Positions 1 through 16,498 of a stretch of 16,498 bases of DNA are shown here, piece by piece; the first letter of the stretch is position 1, and every line of letters starts with the position of its first letter. This DNA comes from a virus (lineage: Duplodnaviria > Heunggongvirae > Uroviricota > Caudoviricetes), in the IMG/VR virus record IMGVR_UViG_2728369591_000008, positions 1 through 16,498 of that record; one strand, given 5' to 3'. The notes under the pieces were generated by a model, which saw nothing but the letters and a program-made list of their open reading frames with translations, did no database searches and was not told where the DNA came from. A program made the position numbers and the translations under genes.

Positions 1-756
1 TTGAGTGCGGGACGCCTGAATAAAAAATCTCTGGGTATCGTGATGTTGTTATCGGTTGGACTGCTTTTGGCGGGCTGTTCGGGTAGCAAATCATCCGATA
101 CAGGAACGTATTCCGGCTCCGTTTACACCGTGAAACGGGGGGATACGCTATATCGTATTTCGCGCACCACGGGAACCAGCGTAAAAGAACTGGCGCGACT
201 GAACGGCATTTCCCCCCCTTACACCATTGAAGTTGGTCAGAAACTAAAACTGGGTGGGGCGAAAAGTAGCAGTAGTACACGTAAATCAACCGCCAAATCA
301 ACGACCAAAACCGCATCGGTTACACCGTCATCAGCGGTACCGAAATCTTCCTGGCCGCCAGTAGGGCAACGTTGTTGGTTATGGCCAACGACAGGGAAAG
401 TTATCATGCCGTATTCGACAGCAGATGGCGGCAATAAAGGGATTGATATCTCAGCTCCACGGGGTACACCTATTTACGCCGCGGGTGCAGGAAAGGTGGT
501 GTATGTGGGCAACCAGCTGCGTGGCTACGGTAATCTCATCATGATTAAACACAGTGAAGATTACATTACGGCTTACGCCCATAATGACACGATGCTGGTA
601 AATAATGGGCAAAGCGTGAAGACTGGGCAAAAAATCGCCACTATGGGGAGCACGGATGCGGCATCTGTTCGCCTGCATTTCCAGATTCGTTACCGTGCAA
701 CGGCAATTGATCCGCTACGTTACTTGCCGCCGCAGGGCAGCAAGCCAAAATGCTGA
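1..756 (+). CDS. ygeR: LysM-domain / M23-peptidase lipoprotein (YgeR-like), 251 aa, TTG start at window edge
   Basis: N-terminal lipoprotein signal with lipobox LLAGCSG; LysM-like segment (YTVKRGDTLYRISRTTG...LARLNG); C-terminal M23-peptidase-like region (GIDISAPRGTPIYAAGAGKVVYVG...HLHFQIRY). Length and position next to tRNA-Gly(CCC) match my recollection of E. coli ygeR; the symbol is from memory, not a search. Confidence 0.8.
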   Translation: MSAGRLNKKSLGIVMLLSVGLLLAGCSGSKSSDTGTYSGSVYTVKRGDTLYRISRTTGTSVKELARLNGISPPYTIEVGQKLKLGGAKSSSSTRKSTAKSTTKTASVTPSSAVPKSSWPPVGQRCWLWPTTGKVIMPYSTADGGNKGIDISAPRGTPIYAAGAGKVVYVGNQLRGYGNLIMIKHSEDYITAYAHNDTMLVNNGQSVKTGQKIATMGSTDAASVRLHFQIRYRATAIDPLRYLPPQGSKPKC

Positions 757-789
757 TGGCGAATTAATCAGCAGTCAGCAGCGCGGCAC

Positions 790-817
790 TTGCTAAGGAG
801 AGCGTAAGGTTTATAAT
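790..817 (+). promoter_or_regulatory. Candidate sigma70 promoter for tRNA-Gly (-35 TTGCTA 790..795, 16-bp spacer, -10 TATAAT 812..817)
   Basis: Near-consensus hexamers with 16-bp spacing, about 17 bp upstream of the mature tRNA 5' end. Confidence 0.4.
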
Positions 818-834
818 GCCTTACGCATCTCGAA

Positions 835-908
835 GCGGGCGTAGTTCAATGGTAGAACGAGAGCTTCCCAAGCTCTATACGAGGGTTCGATTCCCTTCGC
901 CCGCTCCA
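835..908 (+). tRNA. glyU: tRNA-Gly (anticodon CCC), 74 nt
   Basis: Sequence GCGGGCGTAGTTCAATGGTAGAACGAGAGCTTCCCAAGCTCTATACGAGGGTTCGATTCCCTTCGCCCGCTCCA folds as a cloverleaf: 7-bp acceptor stem GCGGGCG/CGCCCGC, anticodon stem AGAGC/GCTCT with loop TTCCCAA, T-arm GGTTCGATTCC; no encoded CCA. Confidence 0.95.
891..908 (+). repeat. attL core (3' end of tRNA-Gly, TTCCCTTCGCCCGCTCCA)
   Basis: Direct repeat partner at 15406..15422 (TTCCCTTCGCCGCTCCA, 17 of 18 positions with one C deleted). Confidence 0.6.
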
Positions 909-922
909 AACAAACATTTCTC

Positions 923-1043
923 AACGTCTACTAAAGTCCATCAAACCCACGAATATCAAGCCTTCCAGCATTTTCATAGTTTATTAACGTCTACTCACAA
1001 CTACCAGAATCTACACACAGAAGTGTATAGTAATGCGTATAGG
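923..1043 (+). repeat. Candidate integrase arm-type sites in attL (AACGTCTACT at 923..932 and 986..995; GTGTATAGTAATGCGTATAGG at 1023..1043)
   Basis: Short direct repeats between the tRNA end and the int start; the GTGTATAG motif recurs near the other island end (15327..15350). Confidence 0.45.
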
Positions 1044-1071
1044 ACAAAATTTATTTTTTGGAGCTATACAC

Positions 1072-2286
1072 ATGCTGCTTTCAGACCTTGCCATCAGGCG
1101 CGCGAAGCCGAAAGAAAAGGCTTATACACTCAATGACGGTAACGGGCTTTCGTTGCTCATTGAGCCGAACGGTTCGAAAGGGTGGCGACTGCGCTACAGG
1201 TTTGCAGGAAAGCCCAAAATGTTGTCGTTGGGTGTGTACCCTGATGTGTCTCTGTCTGATGCCAGGGCGGCAAGGGATGAGGCTAAAAGGCTTCTTGCTG
1301 GTGGTATAAATCCAAGTGAGGCCAGAAAAGCCCAAAAGCGAGAACAGGCGAGCAAATTTGGCAATACTTTTGAGGGTATCGCTCGCGAATGGTACGAAAA
1401 GCGGATCGACAGGTGGTCATCGTCATACGCCGAGGAAATGATCGAGACGTTTGAAAAAGACGTTTTTCCGTACATTGGCGGTAGGCCGATCGCAGAAATT
1501 AAGCCGATGGAATTGCTGGCGGTTCTTTCCCGTCTTAATGACCGTGGTGCGACTGAAAAATTGCGTAAGGTTCGCCAGCGATGCGGCGAGGTGTTCCGGT
1601 ACGCAATCATCACCGGACGCGCCGAATATAATCCAGCCCCTGACCTGGTGAGCGCATTTGCTCCACATAAAAAAGAGCATTACGCCTATCTGAAGGCCGA
1701 CGAACTGCCGGAATTTTTCCGCGTTTTTAATACGTACACCGGAAGCCAGATCGTCAAACTGGCAATGCGGCTATTAATTCTGACAGGTGTCAGACCCGGG
1801 GAATTACGGCAGGCAGAATGGCAGGAGATCGATTTTGATAATCGTTTGTGGGAAGTGCCTAAAGAACGAATGAAGATGCGCCGTCCGCATTGTGTGCCAT
1901 TACCAGAACAGGCGATAAAAATACTGGAGCAGTTAAAAAACATGACAGGCCAGTATCAGTTTATTTTCCCCGGTCGTATTCACCACAGTAAGCCAATGAG
2001 TGAAATGGCGATGAATGTGCTCATTCGTCGTATCGGCTATGCCGGGCGCGTTACTGGTCATGGATTCCGGCACACCATGAGCACCATTTTGCATGAGCAG
2101 GGCTATAACACCGCGTGGATAGAAACGCAGCTCGCGCATGTCGATAAAAACTCAATTCGTGGCACATACAACCATGCGCAATATCTGGATGGCAGACGCG
2201 AAATGCTCCAGTGGTATGCCGACTATATGGATTCGCTCGAGCATGGCGGAAATGTGGTGCATGGTGAGTTCGGAAAATGCGGGTGA
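1072..2286 (+). CDS. int: Tyrosine recombinase / integrase, P4-like family (404 aa)
   Basis: N-terminus MLLSDLAIRRAKPKEKAYTLNDGNGLSLLIEPNGSKGWRLRYRF is typical of P4-type integrases; C-terminal catalytic motifs HGFRHT and RGTYNHAQY; RBS GGAG 1060..1063 before ATG 1072 (the track's upstream ATG at 1033 has no RBS). Confidence 0.93.
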   Translation: MLLSDLAIRRAKPKEKAYTLNDGNGLSLLIEPNGSKGWRLRYRFAGKPKMLSLGVYPDVSLSDARAARDEAKRLLAGGINPSEARKAQKREQASKFGNTFEGIAREWYEKRIDRWSSSYAEEMIETFEKDVFPYIGGRPIAEIKPMELLAVLSRLNDRGATEKLRKVRQRCGEVFRYAIITGRAEYNPAPDLVSAFAPHKKEHYAYLKADELPEFFRVFNTYTGSQIVKLAMRLLILTGVRPGELRQAEWQEIDFDNRLWEVPKERMKMRRPHCVPLPEQAIKILEQLKNMTGQYQFIFPGRIHHSKPMSEMAMNVLIRRIGYAGRVTGHGFRHTMSTILHEQGYNTAWIETQLAHVDKNSIRGTYNHAQYLDGRREMLQWYADYMDSLEHGGNVVHGEFGKCG

Positions 2287-2414
2287 CTGGTTGAGTATAC
2301 AGTAGTAGACTTTGAGCGACGAAAGAAAAGGCTGTGTCTAGGGTCGCTCCCGAAAATCCGTACACCTCGACGGACTGGTCCAGCCACTACAGTAGAGGAC
2401 GCTGAGGTGTGCGT

Positions 2415-3212
2415 ATGATTGATATTCATGCCGAATTAAACGAATACAAAAAAGATTTTATTTCTTTACGTGAATTTCTTGAGGTCGTGCTTAAGGTCGC
2501 TGGTGATGATTATGATGTTTCAGATGTCATAACTTGGATACTCAGGAGAATAAGCGGAGAACATATCCGCCTGTACACAGTAAATGAATTTAAGCTGTTG
2601 GAATCTTTTTGTAACCCGTATCGGGATGAATTTGATAATGATGTTCTTTATAGAAATCTGAATGCGGTTCGGAAACGTGGTTGTTTACCTGGTGAGAGGG
2701 ATGAAAATGGTTTTCTGGTGTCCGGTTATTGGGAAGATCCCGAATTTGAGAACATTGGATTTATAAGGGGTGAAATTTTCTCAATTTTTCCCGATGTCCT
2801 TGACGCGTTAACGAAGCTGGAAGGCGCTAACCCTTCTGAAAATGACGAGGCACAAGGACGCGATATTGAAAAGAAAGAGTTGCGTACAGAGGATGATTTA
2901 TTATCCCAAATCGCAATGCTGGAAAAAGAAAACGCAGAGTTAAGGGCAAGGATAGAGCAGTTAGAGCAAGAGCGCCCGATACACTTATATAAATACTGGG
3001 ATAAAGACCCATTAGCTAAGGCTATTGAGATTAGAAACAGAGAGTGGGCCAATTACGATCCAGAAAATGATTTTGCCACCAGGGGAAATCAAGAAGCGAT
3101 AACCAGGGAGCTTAAGCAGTGGGGGGCAAGTAATGCACTTGCAACGCTCATAGAGAGGACTGCCTGCCCTATTAACCGAGACAACAGCCAAAAGAACGCA
3201 AAGCCGGATTAA
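2415..3212 (+). CDS. Hypothetical protein with C-terminal coiled coil (265 aa)
   Basis: Long ORF with RBS GAGG 2404..2407 before ATG 2415; heptad-like segment LSQIAMLEKENAELRARIEQLEQER; no domain I recognise. Confidence 0.6.
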   Translation: MIDIHAELNEYKKDFISLREFLEVVLKVAGDDYDVSDVITWILRRISGEHIRLYTVNEFKLLESFCNPYRDEFDNDVLYRNLNAVRKRGCLPGERDENGFLVSGYWEDPEFENIGFIRGEIFSIFPDVLDALTKLEGANPSENDEAQGRDIEKKELRTEDDLLSQIAMLEKENAELRARIEQLEQERPIHLYKYWDKDPLAKAIEIRNREWANYDPENDFATRGNQEAITRELKQWGASNALATLIERTACPINRDNSQKNAKPD

Positions 3213-3227
3213 CGCACCATACCGCAT

Positions 3228-3338
3228 ACCCTGAGGGTGATTTACTGTTACCCTGAGGGTATTTTTTTATCTTCCCCGTCAATTTTACCATCACCCTTAG
3301 GGTAGATTTCCTTCCGGTAACCATTAGGCCTGAGGGTA
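3228..3338 (+). promoter_or_regulatory. Four copies of ACCCTGAGGGT-like motif upstream of alpA (3228..3238, 3250..3260, 3293..3303, 3328..3338)
   Basis: Imperfect repeats of a partly palindromic core CCTGAGGG / CCTTAGGG in a non-coding stretch directly upstream of the AlpA-family gene; candidate regulator-binding sites. Confidence 0.5.
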
Positions 3339-3406
3339 TGAAAATATTCGTTATTTCTGTGCCATGATTACCTCGTCAAATTGAGTAGACGTTATGAGGT
3401 AAATAT

Positions 3407-3604
3407 ATGTCAAATACGCTTATTCGTTTAACAGAAGTTCAGCGTAGAACTGGATATAGCAAGGCATGGATTTATCGCCTTATGGGGCAAGGTAAATTTC
3501 CTGCATCAGTTAAAATTGGCTCGCGAGCTATTGCTTTCGTTGAGAGTGAAATTGACGAGTGGATTAATCAGCGTATTGCGGAATCACGCGGAACAGCTAC
3601 CTGA
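3407..3604 (+). CDS. alpA: AlpA-family phage transcriptional regulator (65 aa)
   Basis: Sequence MSNTLIRLTEVQRRTGYSKAWIYRLMGQGKFPASVKIGSRAIAFVESEIDEWI matches the AlpA/excisionase-like HTH family pattern; RBS GAGG 3396..3399. Confidence 0.85.
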   Translation: MSNTLIRLTEVQRRTGYSKAWIYRLMGQGKFPASVKIGSRAIAFVESEIDEWINQRIAESRGTAT

Positions 3605-3681
3605 TTAAATGGCTACGGGGCTATTGCCCCCAGCTATCCACCAGCAAATAAAAGTAACTTAATTCGATAGCAGGAGTTTTT

Positions 3682-4482
3682 ATGAAATTTCCAAAAACGC
3701 CCGTACAGGGGCGGGGCTTCGTTCGGCCTGAAAACCAGAATCTGCAAAATTTCGGCGAAATTATCCCGATTATTTCCGGCGTTATTGGCGGGAGTGAAAC
3801 CACTATTGTTAGCGCCAGAGCGTTACATAAGGCGTTAGGTGTAGGGCGCGTTTTCCGTTCGTGGATCAAGGGGCGCATTGAAGAATACGGGTTCACGGAA
3901 GGCGTGGATTATGAGGTTGTTGAATATTTGAGCCGACCCGATCCGGTGAGCGCAAAATCTCGCCAGCAAACCGCTCTTGAGTACATCATCACAGTGAACA
4001 TGGCGAAAGAACTGGCGATGGTCGAACGTACCGAACAGGGCCGCGCCGTTCGCCAGTACTTTATCAAATGCGAGGAGGAGCTACACAAGGTAGCGCCAGT
4101 GCGTTCCGCAGCATTACGCCGGGAACTGAAAGCCCGTATCACCGTTGCCAGCTACTTTAAGCCAATGTGTGCCGCGCTGGAGGCGTACCGGGCTGAACTG
4201 GGTAAAAACACGTTCCAGCACCACTACACCACGGAAGCCAATATGCTGGCGCGTATCGTGCTGGGTGGCATGACTGCAAAACAGTGGGCGCAGGCGAACG
4301 GCATCACAGGCGAACCACGCGACCACATGAGCACGTTGCAGCTTGAGCACCTTTCTTACCTTGAGCAGAGCAATATCACGCTGATTGAGTTAGGCCAGGG
4401 CTACCACCAGCGGAAAGCTGAATTAATTCGTCTTTCGCAGCGTTGGTTAGCCCGTCGCATGGAGGAAAACAGCCATGTGTAA
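3682..4482 (+). CDS. Phage antirepressor-like protein (AntA/Rha-type N-terminal domain), 266 aa
   Basis: N-terminal region SARALHKALGVGRVFRSWIKGRIEEYGFTEGVDYEV resembles the AntA/AntB-Rha antirepressor fold family; RBS AGGA 3672..3675. Confidence 0.65.
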   Translation: MKFPKTPVQGRGFVRPENQNLQNFGEIIPIISGVIGGSETTIVSARALHKALGVGRVFRSWIKGRIEEYGFTEGVDYEVVEYLSRPDPVSAKSRQQTALEYIITVNMAKELAMVERTEQGRAVRQYFIKCEEELHKVAPVRSAALRRELKARITVASYFKPMCAALEAYRAELGKNTFQHHYTTEANMLARIVLGGMTAKQWAQANGITGEPRDHMSTLQLEHLSYLEQSNITLIELGQGYHQRKAELIRLSQRWLARRMEENSHV

Positions 4483-4752
4483 CGCTCTGACCGTTACAAA
4501 AAGAGAAAGCGCCCCGTTGCCGGAGCGCCTTTGTGAACGAATAGCCTACTGCGCCATATTGCTTACTGTCTACGAGGCAGATTATAGCGTTGTGGTCGCA
4601 CAGAGTGAAGGCGCTGATCACCGTTACTACAGCACGCCAGAAATGCAGAATATTTTGCTGCAAAATGTCGTTGGTCACGCTGTCCGGAAAGCAAAAAATT
4701 TTGCTGGTGGCGCGACTGATGCGATTTTTTCTGGTCGCCCGGTGCTGATCAA

Positions 4753-5055
4753 CTACTCCTGTTCTTTGGCCTTGCGGCGCTGGAGTTCTTCACGCGCGAC
4801 GGTGACGAGTTGCCCGATCTCCTCGGCAGCTTTGACACCGATTTTTTCCACCTGCGCCAGTGCATCGAGCGAAGAAACCAGGGGATTTTCTCCTCTTCCT
4901 TCTGCCTGGCGGCGAGCGATCTCACCGCGCATGGCGGTTACTATGAATCCGGCGTTGCTTTCGCCGTCCAGTTTTACGGATTCCATGCCCTCCATAACAT
5001 CGTGGGGAACCCTGATCGTTGTCATTTGCGATTTTGCATTTTTGTATACAGACAT
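4753..5055 (-). CDS. Putative ribbon-helix-helix (CopG/Arc-like) repressor, 100 aa, divergent from the replication operon
   Basis: N-terminal MTTIRVPHDVMEGME fits the RHH beta-strand plus helix pattern; the gene starts next to an operator-like repeat array; the plus-strand frame over this interval translates to Ser/Pro/Ala-rich antisense-looking sequence. Confidence 0.6.
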   Translation of the reverse strand: MSVYKNAKSQMTTIRVPHDVMEGMESVKLDGESNAGFIVTAMRGEIARRQAEGRGENPLVSSLDALAQVEKIGVKAAEEIGQLVTVAREELQRRKAKEQE

Positions 5056-5176
5056 AGTTAATCACCAATTTGTTATGTGTATATCACTATACACAAAAGT
5101 GAGATATAAAAACACTTGCAATGTATATCACCACAATATAATGTGTATCTCACATGGGGGTCGCTATGTATCTCAC
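5043..5176. promoter_or_regulatory. Divergent promoter/operator region: 20-bp palindrome TGTGTATATCACTATACACA (5076..5095) plus TGTAT(A/C)TCAC repeats at 5122..5131, 5144..5153, 5167..5176 and inverted copy 5099..5107; candidate rightward promoter -35 TTGCAA 5116..5121, -10 TATAAT 5137..5142
   Basis: Direct and inverted repeats of one 10-mer, spaced about 22 bp apart, overlapping the candidate -35/-10 hexamers between the divergent RHH gene and the plus-strand operon. Confidence 0.6.
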
Positions 5177-5263
5177 AATGAGCGATTCATAAAAACGACG
5201 AAACCCGGCAGTGCGCGAACACTAACCGGGCTTCTAACCAAACCGTTAAATGAGGTAACGATT

Positions 5264-5629
5264 ATGGCTGGAACACAGCATACCCAAACTCACCCTAAAT
5301 TTATATACACCTTCCTGGCGGTGCACCGTGATTGCATGGCTGACGGTAAAAACACTGTACACGTAGCCGCTGATACGCTGGTGGATGCCTGCGAGATGCT
5401 CAATGACATGGGCTATATCTCGGCAACATGGAAAGGGCGCGAAGAAAACACGCTGTTTATTCAGAAATGCGAGAACAATTTTATCTGGCGTTTTATCGCC
5501 CTGAGCACGGCACAACCGCGCGTGATTCACATCGAGGCCACCAGCGAACAGGAAGCACGCCAGCAATCCCCGGCTGGCTGCGTGATGGTATTCGCCGCCC
5601 GTATTCGCCAGGAGGTGGAACATGTGTAA
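5264..5629 (+). CDS. Hypothetical protein (121 aa), first gene of the coupled operon
   Basis: RBS GAGG 5252..5255 before ATG 5264; overlaps the start of the next ORF. Confidence 0.6.
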   Translation: MAGTQHTQTHPKFIYTFLAVHRDCMADGKNTVHVAADTLVDACEMLNDMGYISATWKGREENTLFIQKCENNFIWRFIALSTAQPRVIHIEATSEQEARQQSPAGCVMVFAARIRQEVEHV

Positions 5630-5846
5630 TGCAACATGGCCTGATGCAGCGGTAGACGCTATCAAAACGCTGATGGATTCACTTGTTGAGATTTCTGCTA
5701 TCGCTGGTGTGGCGCATAAACACGCAGCCAGAGAATCAGAATGCATCTCCCATTATTTAGCATTTGTGCAGCTAAAAGCCGATCAGGCACTGGATAAGGC
5801 CGGAAAAATTATCATGGCTGATGTGCAGGAGGTGCACCATGCATAA
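5622..5846 (+). CDS. Hypothetical protein (74 aa)
   Basis: Start overlaps the stop of the upstream gene (ATGTGTAA); same-strand coupled series. Confidence 0.5.
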   Translation: MCNATWPDAAVDAIKTLMDSLVEISAIAGVAHKHAARESECISHYLAFVQLKADQALDKAGKIIMADVQEVHHA

Positions 5847-6204
5847 CCTGTCAATTTCTGACCTTAACAGCATTCAGTTTGACGAGAAATTTACCGGGCA
5901 GTTGCTGGTCAATGTGGAGAACGGGCGCATAGTGCGTAATTACCACCTGCCGGATGGTGCAATTGCCGGAAGCGTTGAAGCATTGCTGGAACTGGCGGAA
6001 CGTGCGCGACTGATTAAGCCGTCAACGAGCCATCACGATGATGATCTGCATTTTACCGGGCGTATGGTGAGTCACTACGAAAACGGCGTTGAAGTATCCC
6101 GCGAACGGCTGCGTGATGATTGCTGTTTCGGCACACTGCCGGAATTTATCGAGTTGCTGACCAGTTGCGGTTATCAGGTCATTCAGGGGGGTAAACATGC
6201 GTGA
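5839..6204 (+). CDS. Hypothetical protein (121 aa)
   Basis: RBS AGGAGG 5826..5831 before ATG 5839; overlaps the upstream stop. Confidence 0.55.
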   Translation: MHNLSISDLNSIQFDEKFTGQLLVNVENGRIVRNYHLPDGAIAGSVEALLELAERARLIKPSTSHHDDDLHFTGRMVSHYENGVEVSRERLRDDCCFGTLPEFIELLTSCGYQVIQGGKHA

Positions 6205-6430
6205 TGATCGTTTTAATTCCCTGAAACGGGAATTTGATGGCGCACCGGAAGATGCAGCGGGCGCATTGTTGAGCGTTGCTGACATGATGAAAGCTGCATA
6301 TTTTCTTATCAATACCAGTGGCTACAAGTCAGAGGGTGAAATGATTCTTAGTATTGCGTCGGACTATGCGGAATATGTGGCAGAGACGCGTTACAGAAGA
6401 AAATCTCTGGAGGATGTAAGCCATGCATAA
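6197..6430 (+). CDS. Hypothetical protein (77 aa)
   Basis: G-rich RBS before ATG 6197; ATGCGTGA overlap with the upstream stop. Confidence 0.5.
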   Translation: MRDDRFNSLKREFDGAPEDAAGALLSVADMMKAAYFLINTSGYKSEGEMILSIASDYAEYVAETRYRRKSLEDVSHA

Positions 6431-6623
6431 TCATGAAGCGCATGTACCCGTAGTGCTTAATGTGCCAGATGATTTCACCGGACGCGTGCTGGTTTACCTG
6501 GATAAAGGGAAAGTGAAATCACAATGCCGACTGAAAAGTAATGAGATTGTTGGTTCTCCTGAATTTTTTTCTGAACTTTGTATTCGTGCGGAAATAAAAC
6601 CGGAACTGCTGACAGGAAAATAA
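6423..6623 (+). CDS. Hypothetical protein (66 aa)
   Basis: ATG 6423 overlaps the upstream stop; coupled series. Confidence 0.45.
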   Translation: MHNHEAHVPVVLNVPDDFTGRVLVYLDKGKVKSQCRLKSNEIVGSPEFFSELCIRAEIKPELLTGK

Positions 6624-6627
6624 AACC

Positions 6628-6918
6628 ATGAAAAAGAAAAATTCTGGCTTTACTGCCAGCGGCCTCTCTCGGCCTGAAATCCGCCCCGGTGATATTTTCC
6701 GGGACACCAGACGCGGGGGACGGGTGGTTATTCGTCACGTTACGCCAGGCAATATCACCTACCGCCGTGAGGCTTACGAATATGACTGCGTAATGCCGCG
6801 CCGTCAGTTTGAGCGTGATTTTATTCTGGTGGAAAACAAACAACAGGCAGTGGCGAGACGTGCAGCCACGAATATTAAAAAAATCCGGGCAATGTTGGTT
6901 GCGGGAGGTAAGAAGTGA
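6628..6918 (+). CDS. Hypothetical protein (96 aa)
   Basis: RBS AGGAAA before ATG 6628; its stop overlaps the GTG start of the primase/helicase gene. Confidence 0.55.
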   Translation: MKKKNSGFTASGLSRPEIRPGDIFRDTRRGGRVVIRHVTPGNITYRREAYEYDCVMPRRQFERDFILVENKQQAVARRAATNIKKIRAMLVAGGKK

Positions 6919-8720
6919 AAAACGCACCGAATTTAAAATATCAGCCGAAGGATAAATTCACCGAGGTAATCATTTTTGCCGGGACGGATGCTTACGCCCA
7001 TGCTCAACACTGGATTGAAAGCGAAGGACGAAAACACGGCGATAACGTGCCTCCTGTTTACCTGGGGCCAAAGCAACTGGCAGACCTGGCGAATATCCGC
7101 ATTGTCGACGATGAACGCCGCTTTGCGCGTGTCTATCTCGCGGGGGAGATAGAGCCAATCCAGATCAATGCTATTGCTGAAAAGCTGGCGCTGGCTGGTG
7201 TACAGGACGCGAAATTATACAAAGGTATCACCGACCGGGAGCCGGAAAACTGGCGCGACTACCTGCAACGGATCCGCGAACAGGCAGAGAGTGGGGAAGT
7301 TTCAGCGATGAAATTAGCCACAAAAAATATTGACCTATCCAGGCCAGCACTAAATCAGATGGGAGCCAGCCAGAGAGGGGAAGTGTTACTTGAATATTAT
7401 GGAAGAGCACTGGCTATAAATGATGATTCTGATGTAGTTCACCATTACAACGGAATTGTCTGGGTGCCTGTATCTGATAAGGAACTCCAGCGGTCTATGG
7501 CGAAGATTTTTATTGATGCTGGAATCAGTTATTCGCAAAACGCCATTAAATTTGCCGTAGACACAATGAAATTGAGCCTGCCTGTTATGGGCGGGGCAGG
7601 CAGGAATCTTATTGGATTCAGTAACGGGGTATTTGATACCCGGACGGGAAATTTTCGGGAGCATAACAAAAATGACTGGTTGTTAAATGCCAGTGAATTA
7701 CCGTTCAGCCCACCAGCAGAGGGGGAAACGCTGGCAACACATGCGCCGAATTTCTGGAAGTGGCTGCGTCGTTCGGTGGCAGATAATGATCGTAAAGCTG
7801 ATCGCGTACTGGCGGCATTATTCATGGTACTGGCGAACCGGTACGACTGGCAGTTATTCCTTGAGGTAACAGGCCCAGGCGGAAGCGGTAAAAGTGTGAT
7901 GGCTGAGATTTGTACCATGCTGGCGGGTAAGGCCAACACAGTATCGGCAAGCATGAAGGCTCTGGAAGACGCAAGGGAACGCGCGTTAGTAGTTGGCTTT
8001 TCGCTGATTATCATGCCGGATATGACTCGCTACGCTGGCGATGGTGCAGGAATTAAGGCAATTACTGGCGGCGACAAGGTGGCAATTGATCCGAAACATA
8101 AAGCCCCCTACTCCACACGTATTCCGGCAGTAGTGCTTGCGGTAAACAATAACGCCATGTCATTCAGTGACCGAAGCGGGGGGATCTCGCGTCGTAGGGT
8201 GATATTTAATTTCTCTGAGGTCGTACCGGAGAACGAACGCGATCCCATGCTGGCGGAAAAGATAGAAGGCGAACTGGCGGTAGTGATTCGCCATTTGCTA
8301 ACACGATTTACCGACCAGGACGAAGCTAAAAGACTACTTTATGAGCAGCAAAAATCAGAAGAAGCGCTGTTGATAAAGCGCGAAGGTGATTCACTGGTGG
8401 ACTTTTGCGGCTATCTGATGTCGTTGGTTAAATGTGAAGGAATGATGGTGGGCAATGCGGAAATAGTGCCATTTAGCCCGAGGCGATACCTGTATCATGC
8501 TTATTTAGCCTATATGTCAGCGCATGGCCTGGGAAAACCAGTATCACTGACACGCTTTGGTACTGATATGCCAGGAGCTATGGCGGAATACGGAAAGGAG
8601 TATAAGCGGGCTAAATGCACTAAAGGCCCGGATAAAGGGCGAGTGATAACAAATGTTCTGTTAGATGATGATGCTGATGGCTGGTTGCCAGCAGCTACAG
8701 GGATTAACGACAGAACATAA
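6915..8720 (+). CDS. Replication primase/helicase, P4-alpha / D5-type (Walker A GPGGSGKS), 601 aa, GTG start
   Basis: Walker A motif GPGGSGKS and surrounding P4-family primase C-terminal/helicase-like region; RBS GGGAGG 6903..6908 before GTG 6915; immediately followed by an iteron array. Confidence 0.88.
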   Translation: MKNAPNLKYQPKDKFTEVIIFAGTDAYAHAQHWIESEGRKHGDNVPPVYLGPKQLADLANIRIVDDERRFARVYLAGEIEPIQINAIAEKLALAGVQDAKLYKGITDREPENWRDYLQRIREQAESGEVSAMKLATKNIDLSRPALNQMGASQRGEVLLEYYGRALAINDDSDVVHHYNGIVWVPVSDKELQRSMAKIFIDAGISYSQNAIKFAVDTMKLSLPVMGGAGRNLIGFSNGVFDTRTGNFREHNKNDWLLNASELPFSPPAEGETLATHAPNFWKWLRRSVADNDRKADRVLAALFMVLANRYDWQLFLEVTGPGGSGKSVMAEICTMLAGKANTVSASMKALEDARERALVVGFSLIIMPDMTRYAGDGAGIKAITGGDKVAIDPKHKAPYSTRIPAVVLAVNNNAMSFSDRSGGISRRRVIFNFSEVVPENERDPMLAEKIEGELAVVIRHLLTRFTDQDEAKRLLYEQQKSEEALLIKREGDSLVDFCGYLMSLVKCEGMMVGNAEIVPFSPRRYLYHAYLAYMSAHGLGKPVSLTRFGTDMPGAMAEYGKEYKRAKCTKGPDKGRVITNVLLDDDADGWLPAATGINDRT

Positions 8721-8747
8721 TACGAAATTTATAAGCTGAAACGTAAA

Positions 8748-16159: not shown

Positions 16160-16498
16160 TTACTTCTTAATATCGCCAGTGCATTGATATTCGATAGTCA
16201 CAAGTGTTTGCATACAACCAGATGAAGAAGGTTGTGAACATTGAGAAGTGAATCCACCAAAAGGCTCGGCTCCTGAATATCCCCAAGCGGCACAACGCGC
16301 TTTGGCTGCATTCATGCCTTGTTGTGGATCTACAACAGGACTTTCAAACATACCGTAAGAATAACTCATCCTAACTGTGCCGTCTGATTTGCTTCCACCA
16401 GTTGGAACGAGTTGTTTTTTTGTTGCACATCCAGAAATAATCAATGTTGGGTAATGACTCCAACTTATTGATAGTGTTTTATGTTCAGATAATGCCCG
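16160..16498 (-). CDS. Putative lipoprotein, 5'-truncated by the window end
   Basis: Reading frame is open to the window edge upstream of the track's TTG; lipobox-like IISGCATKK; Gly/Ser-rich mature region with four Cys. Confidence 0.5.
   Translation of the reverse strand, partial: RALSEHKTLSISWSHYPTLIISGCATKKQLVPTGGSKSDGTVRMSYSYGMFESPVVDPQQGMNAAKARCAAWGYSGAEPFGGFTSQCSQPSSSGCMQTLVTIEYQCTGDIKK

Follow-up and report, generated by a model that had tools for sequence, protein, structure and literature searches.

We examined the control region between two divergent transcription units in a 16,498-nucleotide stretch of DNA (positions 1 to 16,498 of IMG/VR record IMGVR_UViG_2728369591_000008, Caudoviricetes; hereafter the window). 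On the minus strand lies a gene of the YlcI/YnfO family (4753-5055, 100 amino acids), whose product is a predicted ribbon-helix-helix (RHH) protein, and on the plus strand a gene string (5264-8720) that is headed by an Icd-like gene and ends with a primase. The region is the compact divergent control region of a phage-satellite island that resembles phage-inducible chromosomal islands (PICIs) and is inserted at a tRNA-Gly gene. At a probability of roughly 0.7, we propose that the RHH protein binds an array of five sites in this region and represses the 5264-8720 operon, and that sites and protein form an exchangeable immunity cassette with an additional antisense layer. A multi-operator array over the promoter of this operon, with the RHH protein as its repressor, had been suggested in a first-pass annotation. 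Comparison with related islands strongly supports that suggestion through the covariation of sites and protein, their decoupling from other genes and a conserved scaffold, and the divergent gene and the coupled gene string were as described there. We infer from sequence, in particular, the binding itself, repression rather than activation, the promoter start points, oligomerisation and the way in which repression is lifted.

Five phased sites and two candidate promoters

The sequence TGTATMTCAC was found exactly at 5078, 5122, 5144 and 5167 on the plus strand and nowhere else in the 16.5 kb. Shuffled sequences gave a mean of 0.04 matches, and none of 200 shuffles reached four. The repeats noted earlier as half-sites are therefore real, and to them we add an overlooked fifth copy, inverted and with one mismatch, at 5099-5108. 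The functional unit was an 11-bp site, (G/A)TG-TAT(A/C)T-CAC in the window and (G/A)TG-N5-CAC in its general form, and the five site centres were spaced 22, 22, 22 and 23 bp, or two helical turns, apart. S1 (GTGTATATCAC, 5077-5087, plus strand) overlapped the -10 and predicted transcription start of a leftward promoter, that of the RHH gene, and its position, about 25 nt from the RHH start codon, was kept in relatives. S2 (TTATATCTCAC, 5099-5109, inverted, minus strand) lay within the spacer of the same promoter. S3 (ATGTATATCAC, 5121-5131, plus strand) began at the last base of the rightward -35 and filled the spacer of the rightward promoter, S4 (GTGTATCTCAC, 5143-5153, plus strand) covered the end of its -10 and its predicted transcription start, and S5 (ATGTATCTCAC, 5166-5176, plus strand) fell near the beginning of the transcribed region. 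Other classes of relatives likewise had a fifth site, at a distance of about 115 nt from the RHH start.

The first-pass annotation had also reported a perfect 20-bp palindrome, TGTGTATATCACTATACACA, at 5076-5095. This did not hold, as the reverse complement is TGTGTATAGTGATATACACA and not the identical sequence. Pairing is confined to the outer 8+8 nt, with a non-symmetric TCAC at the centre. A listing of inverted repeats gave 11-nt arms for the same place, 91% complementary and 4 nt apart. The right arm (TATACACA) is part of a scaffold element, AGTATACACAAAAA, that was kept in relatives whatever their operator sequence and was also present beside quite different left arms (for example CTGGAATCCAGTATACACG). 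The palindrome was accordingly rejected as a functional unit. Judged by these comparisons, the dyad is incidental, S1 simply abutting a conserved -10-like element.

The rightward -35, TTGCAA (5116-5121, plus strand), contains a TTG (5116-5118) that was invariant in all relatives and corresponds to the invariant T64, T65 and G66 of alignment A3. Most relatives read TTGACN, with a 17-nt spacer and TAAnnT. The rightward -10 (5137-5144, plus strand) can be read as TAATGT (5139-5144) with a 17-nt spacer, which is the register of the relatives (L004, for example, has TTGACG-17-TAATAT), or as TATAAT (5137-5142) with a 15-nt spacer. The probable leftward -10, TATAGT (5086-5091, minus strand), lies within AGTATACACAAAAA and overlaps S1; its T-12, A-11 and T-7, at 5091, 5090 and 5086, were invariant or nearly so in 21 cassette representatives. 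Conservation across the family extended to the rightward -35 (its TTG), the rightward -10 (its first T) and the leftward TAnnnT, and it is on this conservation that the two putative promoter assignments rest.

Repression is favoured because the geometry of S3 and S4 is typical of occlusion. The RHH protein might instead bind the array mainly as an activator or an architectural factor, acting on the rightward operon or on its own gene. The leftward promoter, having no recognisable -35, might need help, and the phased sites, together with the A-tracts that separate them, could bend the DNA. In the immI region of P22, discussed below, binding of Mnt favours its own promoter and represses Pant, which we also count in favour of an activating role. 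Nonetheless, such a role is improbable, since in every class S3 and S4 sit on the rightward promoter, over its spacer and over its -10 and start, and upstream of the rightward -35 there are only S1 and S2, which overlap the other promoter.

Site cores, the predicted DNA-reading strand and cassette exchange

The product of 4753-5055 matched the NCBIfam model of the YlcI/YnfO N-terminal domain (NF041551) with 71.2 bits against a cut-off of 30 at residues 8-49, and RefSeq labels an identical gene "YlcI/YnfO family protein". An AlphaFold2 (AF2) monomer prediction built with 44 homologues (predicted local distance difference test, pLDDT, 80.7) gave a short strand, helices at 18-27 and 34-53, and a long helix at 58-99. 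This places a predicted RHH domain at residues ~8-53, followed by the long C-terminal helix, and the N-terminal domain has the expected topology of beta-strand, helix and helix in about 45 residues. We thus consider the protein a predicted ribbon-helix-helix (MetJ/Arc/CopG) DNA-binding protein. Sequence models gave less: in Pfam only PSK_trans_fac was matched, below threshold, by 31 of 44 members (best E 0.00098; the window protein scored 16.1 bits against a cut-off of 28.3), no relevant PDB sequence was retrieved with the family profile at E up to 10, and Foldseek found no match in PDB. In the family alignment N6, S9, R15 and P17 were invariant and K8, Q10 and H18 nearly so, and they frame the variable residues 11-14 (M-T-T-I in the window), which are placed in the predicted DNA-reading strand. 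Twenty-one variants of these four residues were found.

The C-terminal half of the protein (residues ~56-100, encoded by 4753-4890) has an invariant I72-G73 inside VEKIGVKAAEEI. This stretch resembles a helix-hairpin-helix motif, with a weak profile match to Hef (1x2i, E 0.046), but AF2 draws the whole half as one continuous helix. Short-form relatives that lack the C-terminal half keep the same site layout.

Relatives were fetched via the protein and oriented as the window; species genomes supplied 13 loci, IMG/VR 80 and metagenomes 71. A scaffold and the positions of the sites were conserved across 165 related loci. Beginning at the RHH start codon, ~22 nt that contain the ribosome-binding site lead to site 1; next come AGTATACACAAAAA, an inverted site 2, an A-run, CTTGAC, site 3, a stretch of ~14 nt that includes TAAnnT, and site 4. 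A fifth site often follows, and the order closes with a conserved hairpin and the Icd-like gene. A de novo motif search in 163 loci placed the sites ~25, 48, 70, 93 and 115 nt from the RHH start codon, positions that hold for nearly all of 20 strand variants. Seven relatives (L007, L009, L010, L012, L014, L142 and L146) carry a perfect DnaA box, TTATCCACA, just 3' of site 4 and ~105-115 nt from the RHH start codon, which is absent from the window. Where the leader begins, downstream of site 4, loci L003-L008, L013 and L060/L080 have a further palindrome, CCTTG-N6-CAAGG. Its carriers are Photorhabdus/Xenorhabdus and SLTA-class loci, and it has no counterpart in the window.

The scaffold is not a property of the whole protein family, because it was missing at E. 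coli K-12 ylcI (L166, prophage DLP12, 3752-3946). This gene encodes 64 amino acids and is divergent from nohD and the cos region, and its upstream DNA showed neither the scaffold nor an array of GTG-N5-CAC.

The outer GTG...CA(C) of the sites was common to the loci; the inner five bases varied between loci and were constant within a locus. This core covaried with strand residues 11-14 over about 16-20 classes. MTTI and MTTV strands went with TAT(A/C/G/T)T (TAT(A/C)T for MTTI in our list of examples), LTTV and LFTV with TGTTT, SLTA and SVTA with TAAG(A) or TAATT, and QISI with TGATT. KLQT, KLQA and KVQA went with GA(A/G/T)TC, KMSA with GGTGC, QLNA with AATAC, and IKNV with TGCAT or TGTAT. In a class-level permutation of own against foreign sites, none of 100,000 permutations reached the observed concordance. 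Among pairs of proteins at least 90% identical outside the strand and different in the strand residues, the S3 core was never shared (127 pairs; mean distance 2.54 of 8), whereas among pairs less than 70% identical with the same four strand residues it was almost always shared (41 pairs; 0.12). Because the strand dissociates from the rest of the protein in both directions, the association does not merely reflect overall relatedness. Specificity that appears to be read by the strand, and operators made of repeated subsites, are both as expected of RHH proteins.

The sites and the start of the RHH gene behave as one exchangeable specificity cassette (5005-5220), which holds all the sites together with ~17 codons from the beginning of the RHH gene, or as many as ~42 in one of the comparisons. 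Sliding identity against four near-isogenic islands (L093, L133, L036 and L033) was 12-68% in the cassette and 96-100% in the flanks. The boundaries were 5005-5220 against L093 and 4930-5220 against L133. The N-terminus of the RHH protein was the only polypeptide segment inside the exchanged cassette. Its C-terminal half (96-100% identical) co-occurred with five classes, and the Icd-like protein of the window (98%) with three. The island protein AlpA of the window (100%) was found with MTTI, QISI and MKNI cassettes. Conversely, the MTTI cassette and core occurred with AlpA variants of 37%, 41%, 48% and 100% identity, mostly without AntA. Locus L001 was 99.9% identical to the window over a 1.3-kb query spanning the cassette, but has a RepA-type helicase in place of the P4-type primase.

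The AntA-domain gene at 3682-4482, earlier taken as an antirepressor-like gene and a possible part of the same circuit, was decoupled from the cassette. AntA proteins 97-100% identical to that of the window co-occurred with four cassettes (MTTI, MKNI, QISI and SLTA), and in 25 of 31 loci with the same cassette no AntA homologue lay within the fetched flank. A role for AntA in the circuit is thus not supported.

These comparisons also bear on the idea that the sites are bound by some other factor (AlpA, the Icd-like protein, AntA, or a helper-phage or host protein) and that the RHH protein is a bystander. In EcCICFT073, experiments support AlpA as the master regulator (PMC6092414), and the Icd-like protein matched PHROG families 6196 and 1743, both labelled "transcriptional repressor". 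However, the cores differed between islands with the same AlpA, AntA and Icd-like proteins, the MTTI core persisted with very different AlpA variants and mostly without AntA, and only the RHH N-terminus is encoded inside the exchanged cassette. A host factor, for its part, would not need about 16-20 cores in one species. We give a factor other than the RHH protein a small chance, slightly below that of an activating role.

Several observations weigh against repression by the RHH protein through strand-read sites. Only 22-120 bp separate the N-terminal codons from the sites, and physical linkage therefore adds to the covariation. Some class differences are conservative (MTTI and LTTV, for instance), and for this reason residues beyond 11-14, such as those of the N-terminal arm, probably matter too. 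As for the promoters, the candidate rightward promoter of the first-pass annotation is present, but it is imperfect, having either a 15-nt spacer or a weaker -10; a consensus promoter scan of 4600-5500 called no promoter, and no convincing -35 was recognised for the leftward one. Our literature search found no paper on the function of YlcI/YnfO. Finally, for the best-studied E. coli PICI it is the activator AlpA to which induction is ascribed (PMC6092414).

A candidate antisense RNA and related immunity systems

Past the sites, reaching over the start of the operon, a probable cis-antisense small RNA was recognised on the minus strand from 5270 to 5186, from its fold, covariation and a sub-threshold match to SymR. 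The hairpin at its 5' end (5269-5236) has a sequence complementary to the Shine-Dalgarno sequence and start codon of the Icd-like gene. A second, terminator-like hairpin (5234-5200) is followed by UUUCGUCGUUUUU, with a U-rich tail at 5199-5187. A -10-like hexamer, TATGCT (5277-5282, minus strand), lies inside codons 5-7 of the Icd-like gene. The minus-strand RNA had a minimum free energy of -34.7 kcal/mol with a z-score of -5.27, against a z-score of -1.57 for the plus strand. The two hairpins of the leader were conserved in 63 distinct sequences, and the consensus fold was far better on the minus strand (-21.8 versus -8.0). The 13-bp stem was 96.1% canonical on that strand, with 100 G.U cells, and several pairs showed compensatory changes; on the plus strand the G.U cells become C.A mismatches and the same helices were 84.3% canonical. 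All 53 distinct gene starts keep a minus-strand TAnnnT hexamer at a distance of 4 or 10 nt from the start codon, although the codons encode QHT, NHT, NYT, DYI, KST, HDT, NCT or NRI. The Rfam SymR model (RF01809) matched both the window (35.7 bits) and L003 (38.7 bits) over its full length, in each case below its gathering score of 61. A cis-antisense RNA covering the Shine-Dalgarno sequence and start codon of the Icd-like gene is therefore likely. The start of that gene was set at 5264 from conserved ribosome-binding sites and RefSeq annotation. Its frame stays open for 789 nt upstream of 5264, through the control region and antisense to the repressor gene, which gives a mechanical open reading frame (ORF) of 384 amino acids at 4475-5629 (plus strand).

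In the mechanism that we propose, RHH dimers would bind the five 11-bp sites on one face of the DNA, and the long C-terminal helix may link dimers on neighbouring sites. S3 and S4 bracket the rightward promoter from its spacer through its -10 to its start, so that their occupancy would block RNA polymerase and leave the operon from the Icd-like gene to the primase silent. S1 and S2, which cover the -10, start and spacer of the RHH gene's own promoter, would provide autoregulation. As the first ~17-42 codons and the sites travel as one cassette, islands would come to differ in their "immunities". As a second layer, the antisense RNA from inside the Icd-like gene would pair with its ribosome-binding site and start codon and, given the overlap of the genes downstream, may reduce the output of the entire operon.

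The closest system in logic is immI of P22, followed by immI of P1 and the Stl region of Gram-positive PICIs, although the window belongs to neither immI type, for want of homology or of a defining RNA. In P22, immI comprises the RHH repressors Mnt and Arc, the divergent promoters Pmnt and Pant and the antisense RNA sar, and has a small RHH protein with a C-terminal helix of the oligomerisation type. The window resembles it in having a small, predicted RHH protein with a C-terminal helix, divergent from the controlled operon, with operators over back-to-back promoters (here proposed from conservation) and a short, predicted antisense RNA on the ribosome-binding region of a gene of that operon. 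It differs in that homology to Mnt or Arc was not detectable: the PDB chains searched with the family profile, without a relevant match, presumably included the Arc and Mnt structures. In addition, it has five single 11-bp sites 22 bp apart, whereas P22 has one operator with half-sites one turn apart. Its controlled genes are the Icd-like and replication genes and not an antirepressor, and it is a satellite island and not a phage.

In P1 and P7, immI comprises C1, c4 RNA, icd and ant. Here, too, an Icd-like gene (NF033153 in the first gene) heads an overlapping operon, with apparent control by a small RNA at its translation start. No match to C4 RNA (RF01695) was found in the window at E up to 1. 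Unlike the processed sense-strand RNA of P1, the RNA of the window would be cis-antisense, on the opposite strand; the repressor is a predicted RHH protein and not C1, and AntA lies elsewhere and is uncoupled. One relative with a short-form RHH protein (L157) has a true C4 RNA (72.7 bits; 2348-2552, minus strand of the locus), with a1b1 targets, just downstream of its Icd-like gene, and the cassettes are therefore linked to P1-type immI modules.

Stl proteins are larger helix-turn-helix repressors, unrelated in fold to RHH proteins, and homology of the YlcI/YnfO protein to them is unlikely on present models. The likeness to SaPI and other Gram-positive Stl (Rpr) regions lies in a repressor gene divergent from the satellite excision and replication operon, with the control region between them (PMC6092414). 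For Stl, in contrast, derepression by helper-phage proteins has been shown. Heteroimmune lambdoid phages offer another parallel, near-identical elements differing by a module of the DNA-reading part of the repressor and its operators; the present module, however, is ~220 bp and takes in only the N-terminal strand of the RHH protein, not a whole helix-turn-helix repressor gene. The RNA resembles SymR of the SymR/SymE system in being an antisense RNA of ~80 nt that starts just inside its target gene, over the start codon and Shine-Dalgarno sequence, with two hairpins and a terminator. It differs in its score, weak as noted above, and in its target, which is Icd-like and not SymE.

An RHH protein could also be the autoregulating antitoxin of a toxin-antitoxin pair, with operators that serve the pair alone. 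The putative toxin-like gene, however, is divergent and heads a 3.4-kb replication operon, and its likely antidote is the antisense RNA. Moreover, no conserved gene follows the RHH gene. Because homology to related islands ends at its stop codon, we consider it very unlikely that the protein is the antitoxin of a two-gene operon, and such an operon was rejected for lack of a conserved downstream partner. The least probable reading, in which the repeats are replication-origin iterons bound by the primase or an initiator, draws on the direct repeats about 22 bp apart beside the replication operon and on the DnaA box just downstream of S4 in some relatives, but was rejected since L001 keeps the cassette region with a RepA-family helicase and the cores follow the RHH strand rather than the downstream genes; the sites also overlap promoter elements, and described PICIs have their origin downstream of pri-rep (PMC6092414).

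The island, its occurrence and its regulation

The window contains a chromosomal island adjoining a tRNA-Gly gene (835-905). Its genes are an integrase (1033-2286), alpA (3407-3604), the AntA-domain gene described above, the YlcI/YnfO-family gene, the Icd-like gene (5264-5629; 121 amino acids; NF033153 at residues 73-116, 79.7 bits against a cut-off of 25), four small overlapping ORFs (5622-6623), a DUF4222 gene (6628-6918) and a P4-type primase/helicase (6915-8720; D5_N, DUF5906 and Pox_D5 in Pfam, TIGR01613). ProQ/FinO (9092-9634) and PerC (9631-9918) genes follow, with cargo beyond 9918. All of these are on the plus strand except the YlcI/YnfO-family gene, which alone is on the minus strand. 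Within 5264-8720 the genes are tightly packed, with ORF overlaps of 4-26 nt or gaps of 4 nt. The gene order matches that of Gram-negative PICIs, with integrase, AlpA and primase in one orientation, a specific attachment site and a size of about 10-16 kb.

Several further features were noted. A terminator-like hairpin on the minus strand (4506-4531, 11 pairs, T-rich tail), just beyond the 3' end of antA (4482) and ~220 nt past the repressor stop codon, may end the leftward transcript. An Rfam int-alpA RNA (RF02996; 39.3 bits against a gathering score of 35.8) lies at 2331-2398 on the plus strand, between the integrase gene and the next ORF, and was found in L136 as well. At 8743-8828, immediately past the stop codon of the primase gene, a long and near-perfect hairpin precedes AT-rich sequence. 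It surfaced as a spurious match to Plastid-psbM and may represent either a terminator or a portion of the origin. The cargo region of such islands often holds anti-phage systems. The cargo of the window includes a gene for a DUF4747 protein and an overlapping gene for a 199-amino-acid partner (13675-15167), and none of the cargo genes, this pair included, matched PADLOC models.

An E. coli chromosome matched the 1.3 kb around the array with 100% identity, and segments of this stretch had matches in 1,321 of 5,426 complete E. coli genomes; five cassette types combined gave 608 genome hits among the same 5,426. To see whether islands that share a genome avoid carrying the same cassette, genomes with two islands of one class were counted by five class-specific queries, which gave 0, 5, 2, 0 and 1, counts that come without an expected number, and the CFSAN018748 genome carries both MTTI and LTTV. 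The family was also present in Yersinia, Enterobacter, Photorhabdus, Xenorhabdus, Serratia, Pantoea and others. It appears to be absent from deposited phages, as neither megablast nor tblastn gave a match among 50,697 phage records. A circular E. coli record of 10,790 bp (NZ_CP148328.1), deposited as a "non-mobilizable plasmid", carries a complete satellite with int, alpA, a minus-strand YlcI/YnfO gene, an icd-like gene, DUF4222, a primase and a protease/capsid fusion, and may be an excised replicating island. Two further small records from Klebsiella (10.5 and 17 kb) also matched.

The founding paper on Gram-negative PICIs described the existence of a repressor as "unclear" and ascribed induction to AlpA (PMC6092414). 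The cassette described here is a concrete candidate for it. More broadly, though only tentatively, a YlcI/YnfO RHH protein with phased operators may be the master repressor of a large group of Gram-negative satellites, with about 20 orthogonal immunity types. In these, a helper phage would bring about derepression, either directly or via AlpA-driven transcription antisense through the repressor gene, and a SymR-like RNA would act as a second lock. The natural strand/operator pairs, about 20 on one scaffold, amount to a table of RHH recognition rules and could serve as a source of orthogonal repressor-promoter pairs. The proposed role in satellite immunity is also a first hypothesis on the function of the YlcI/YnfO family, which is uncharacterised.

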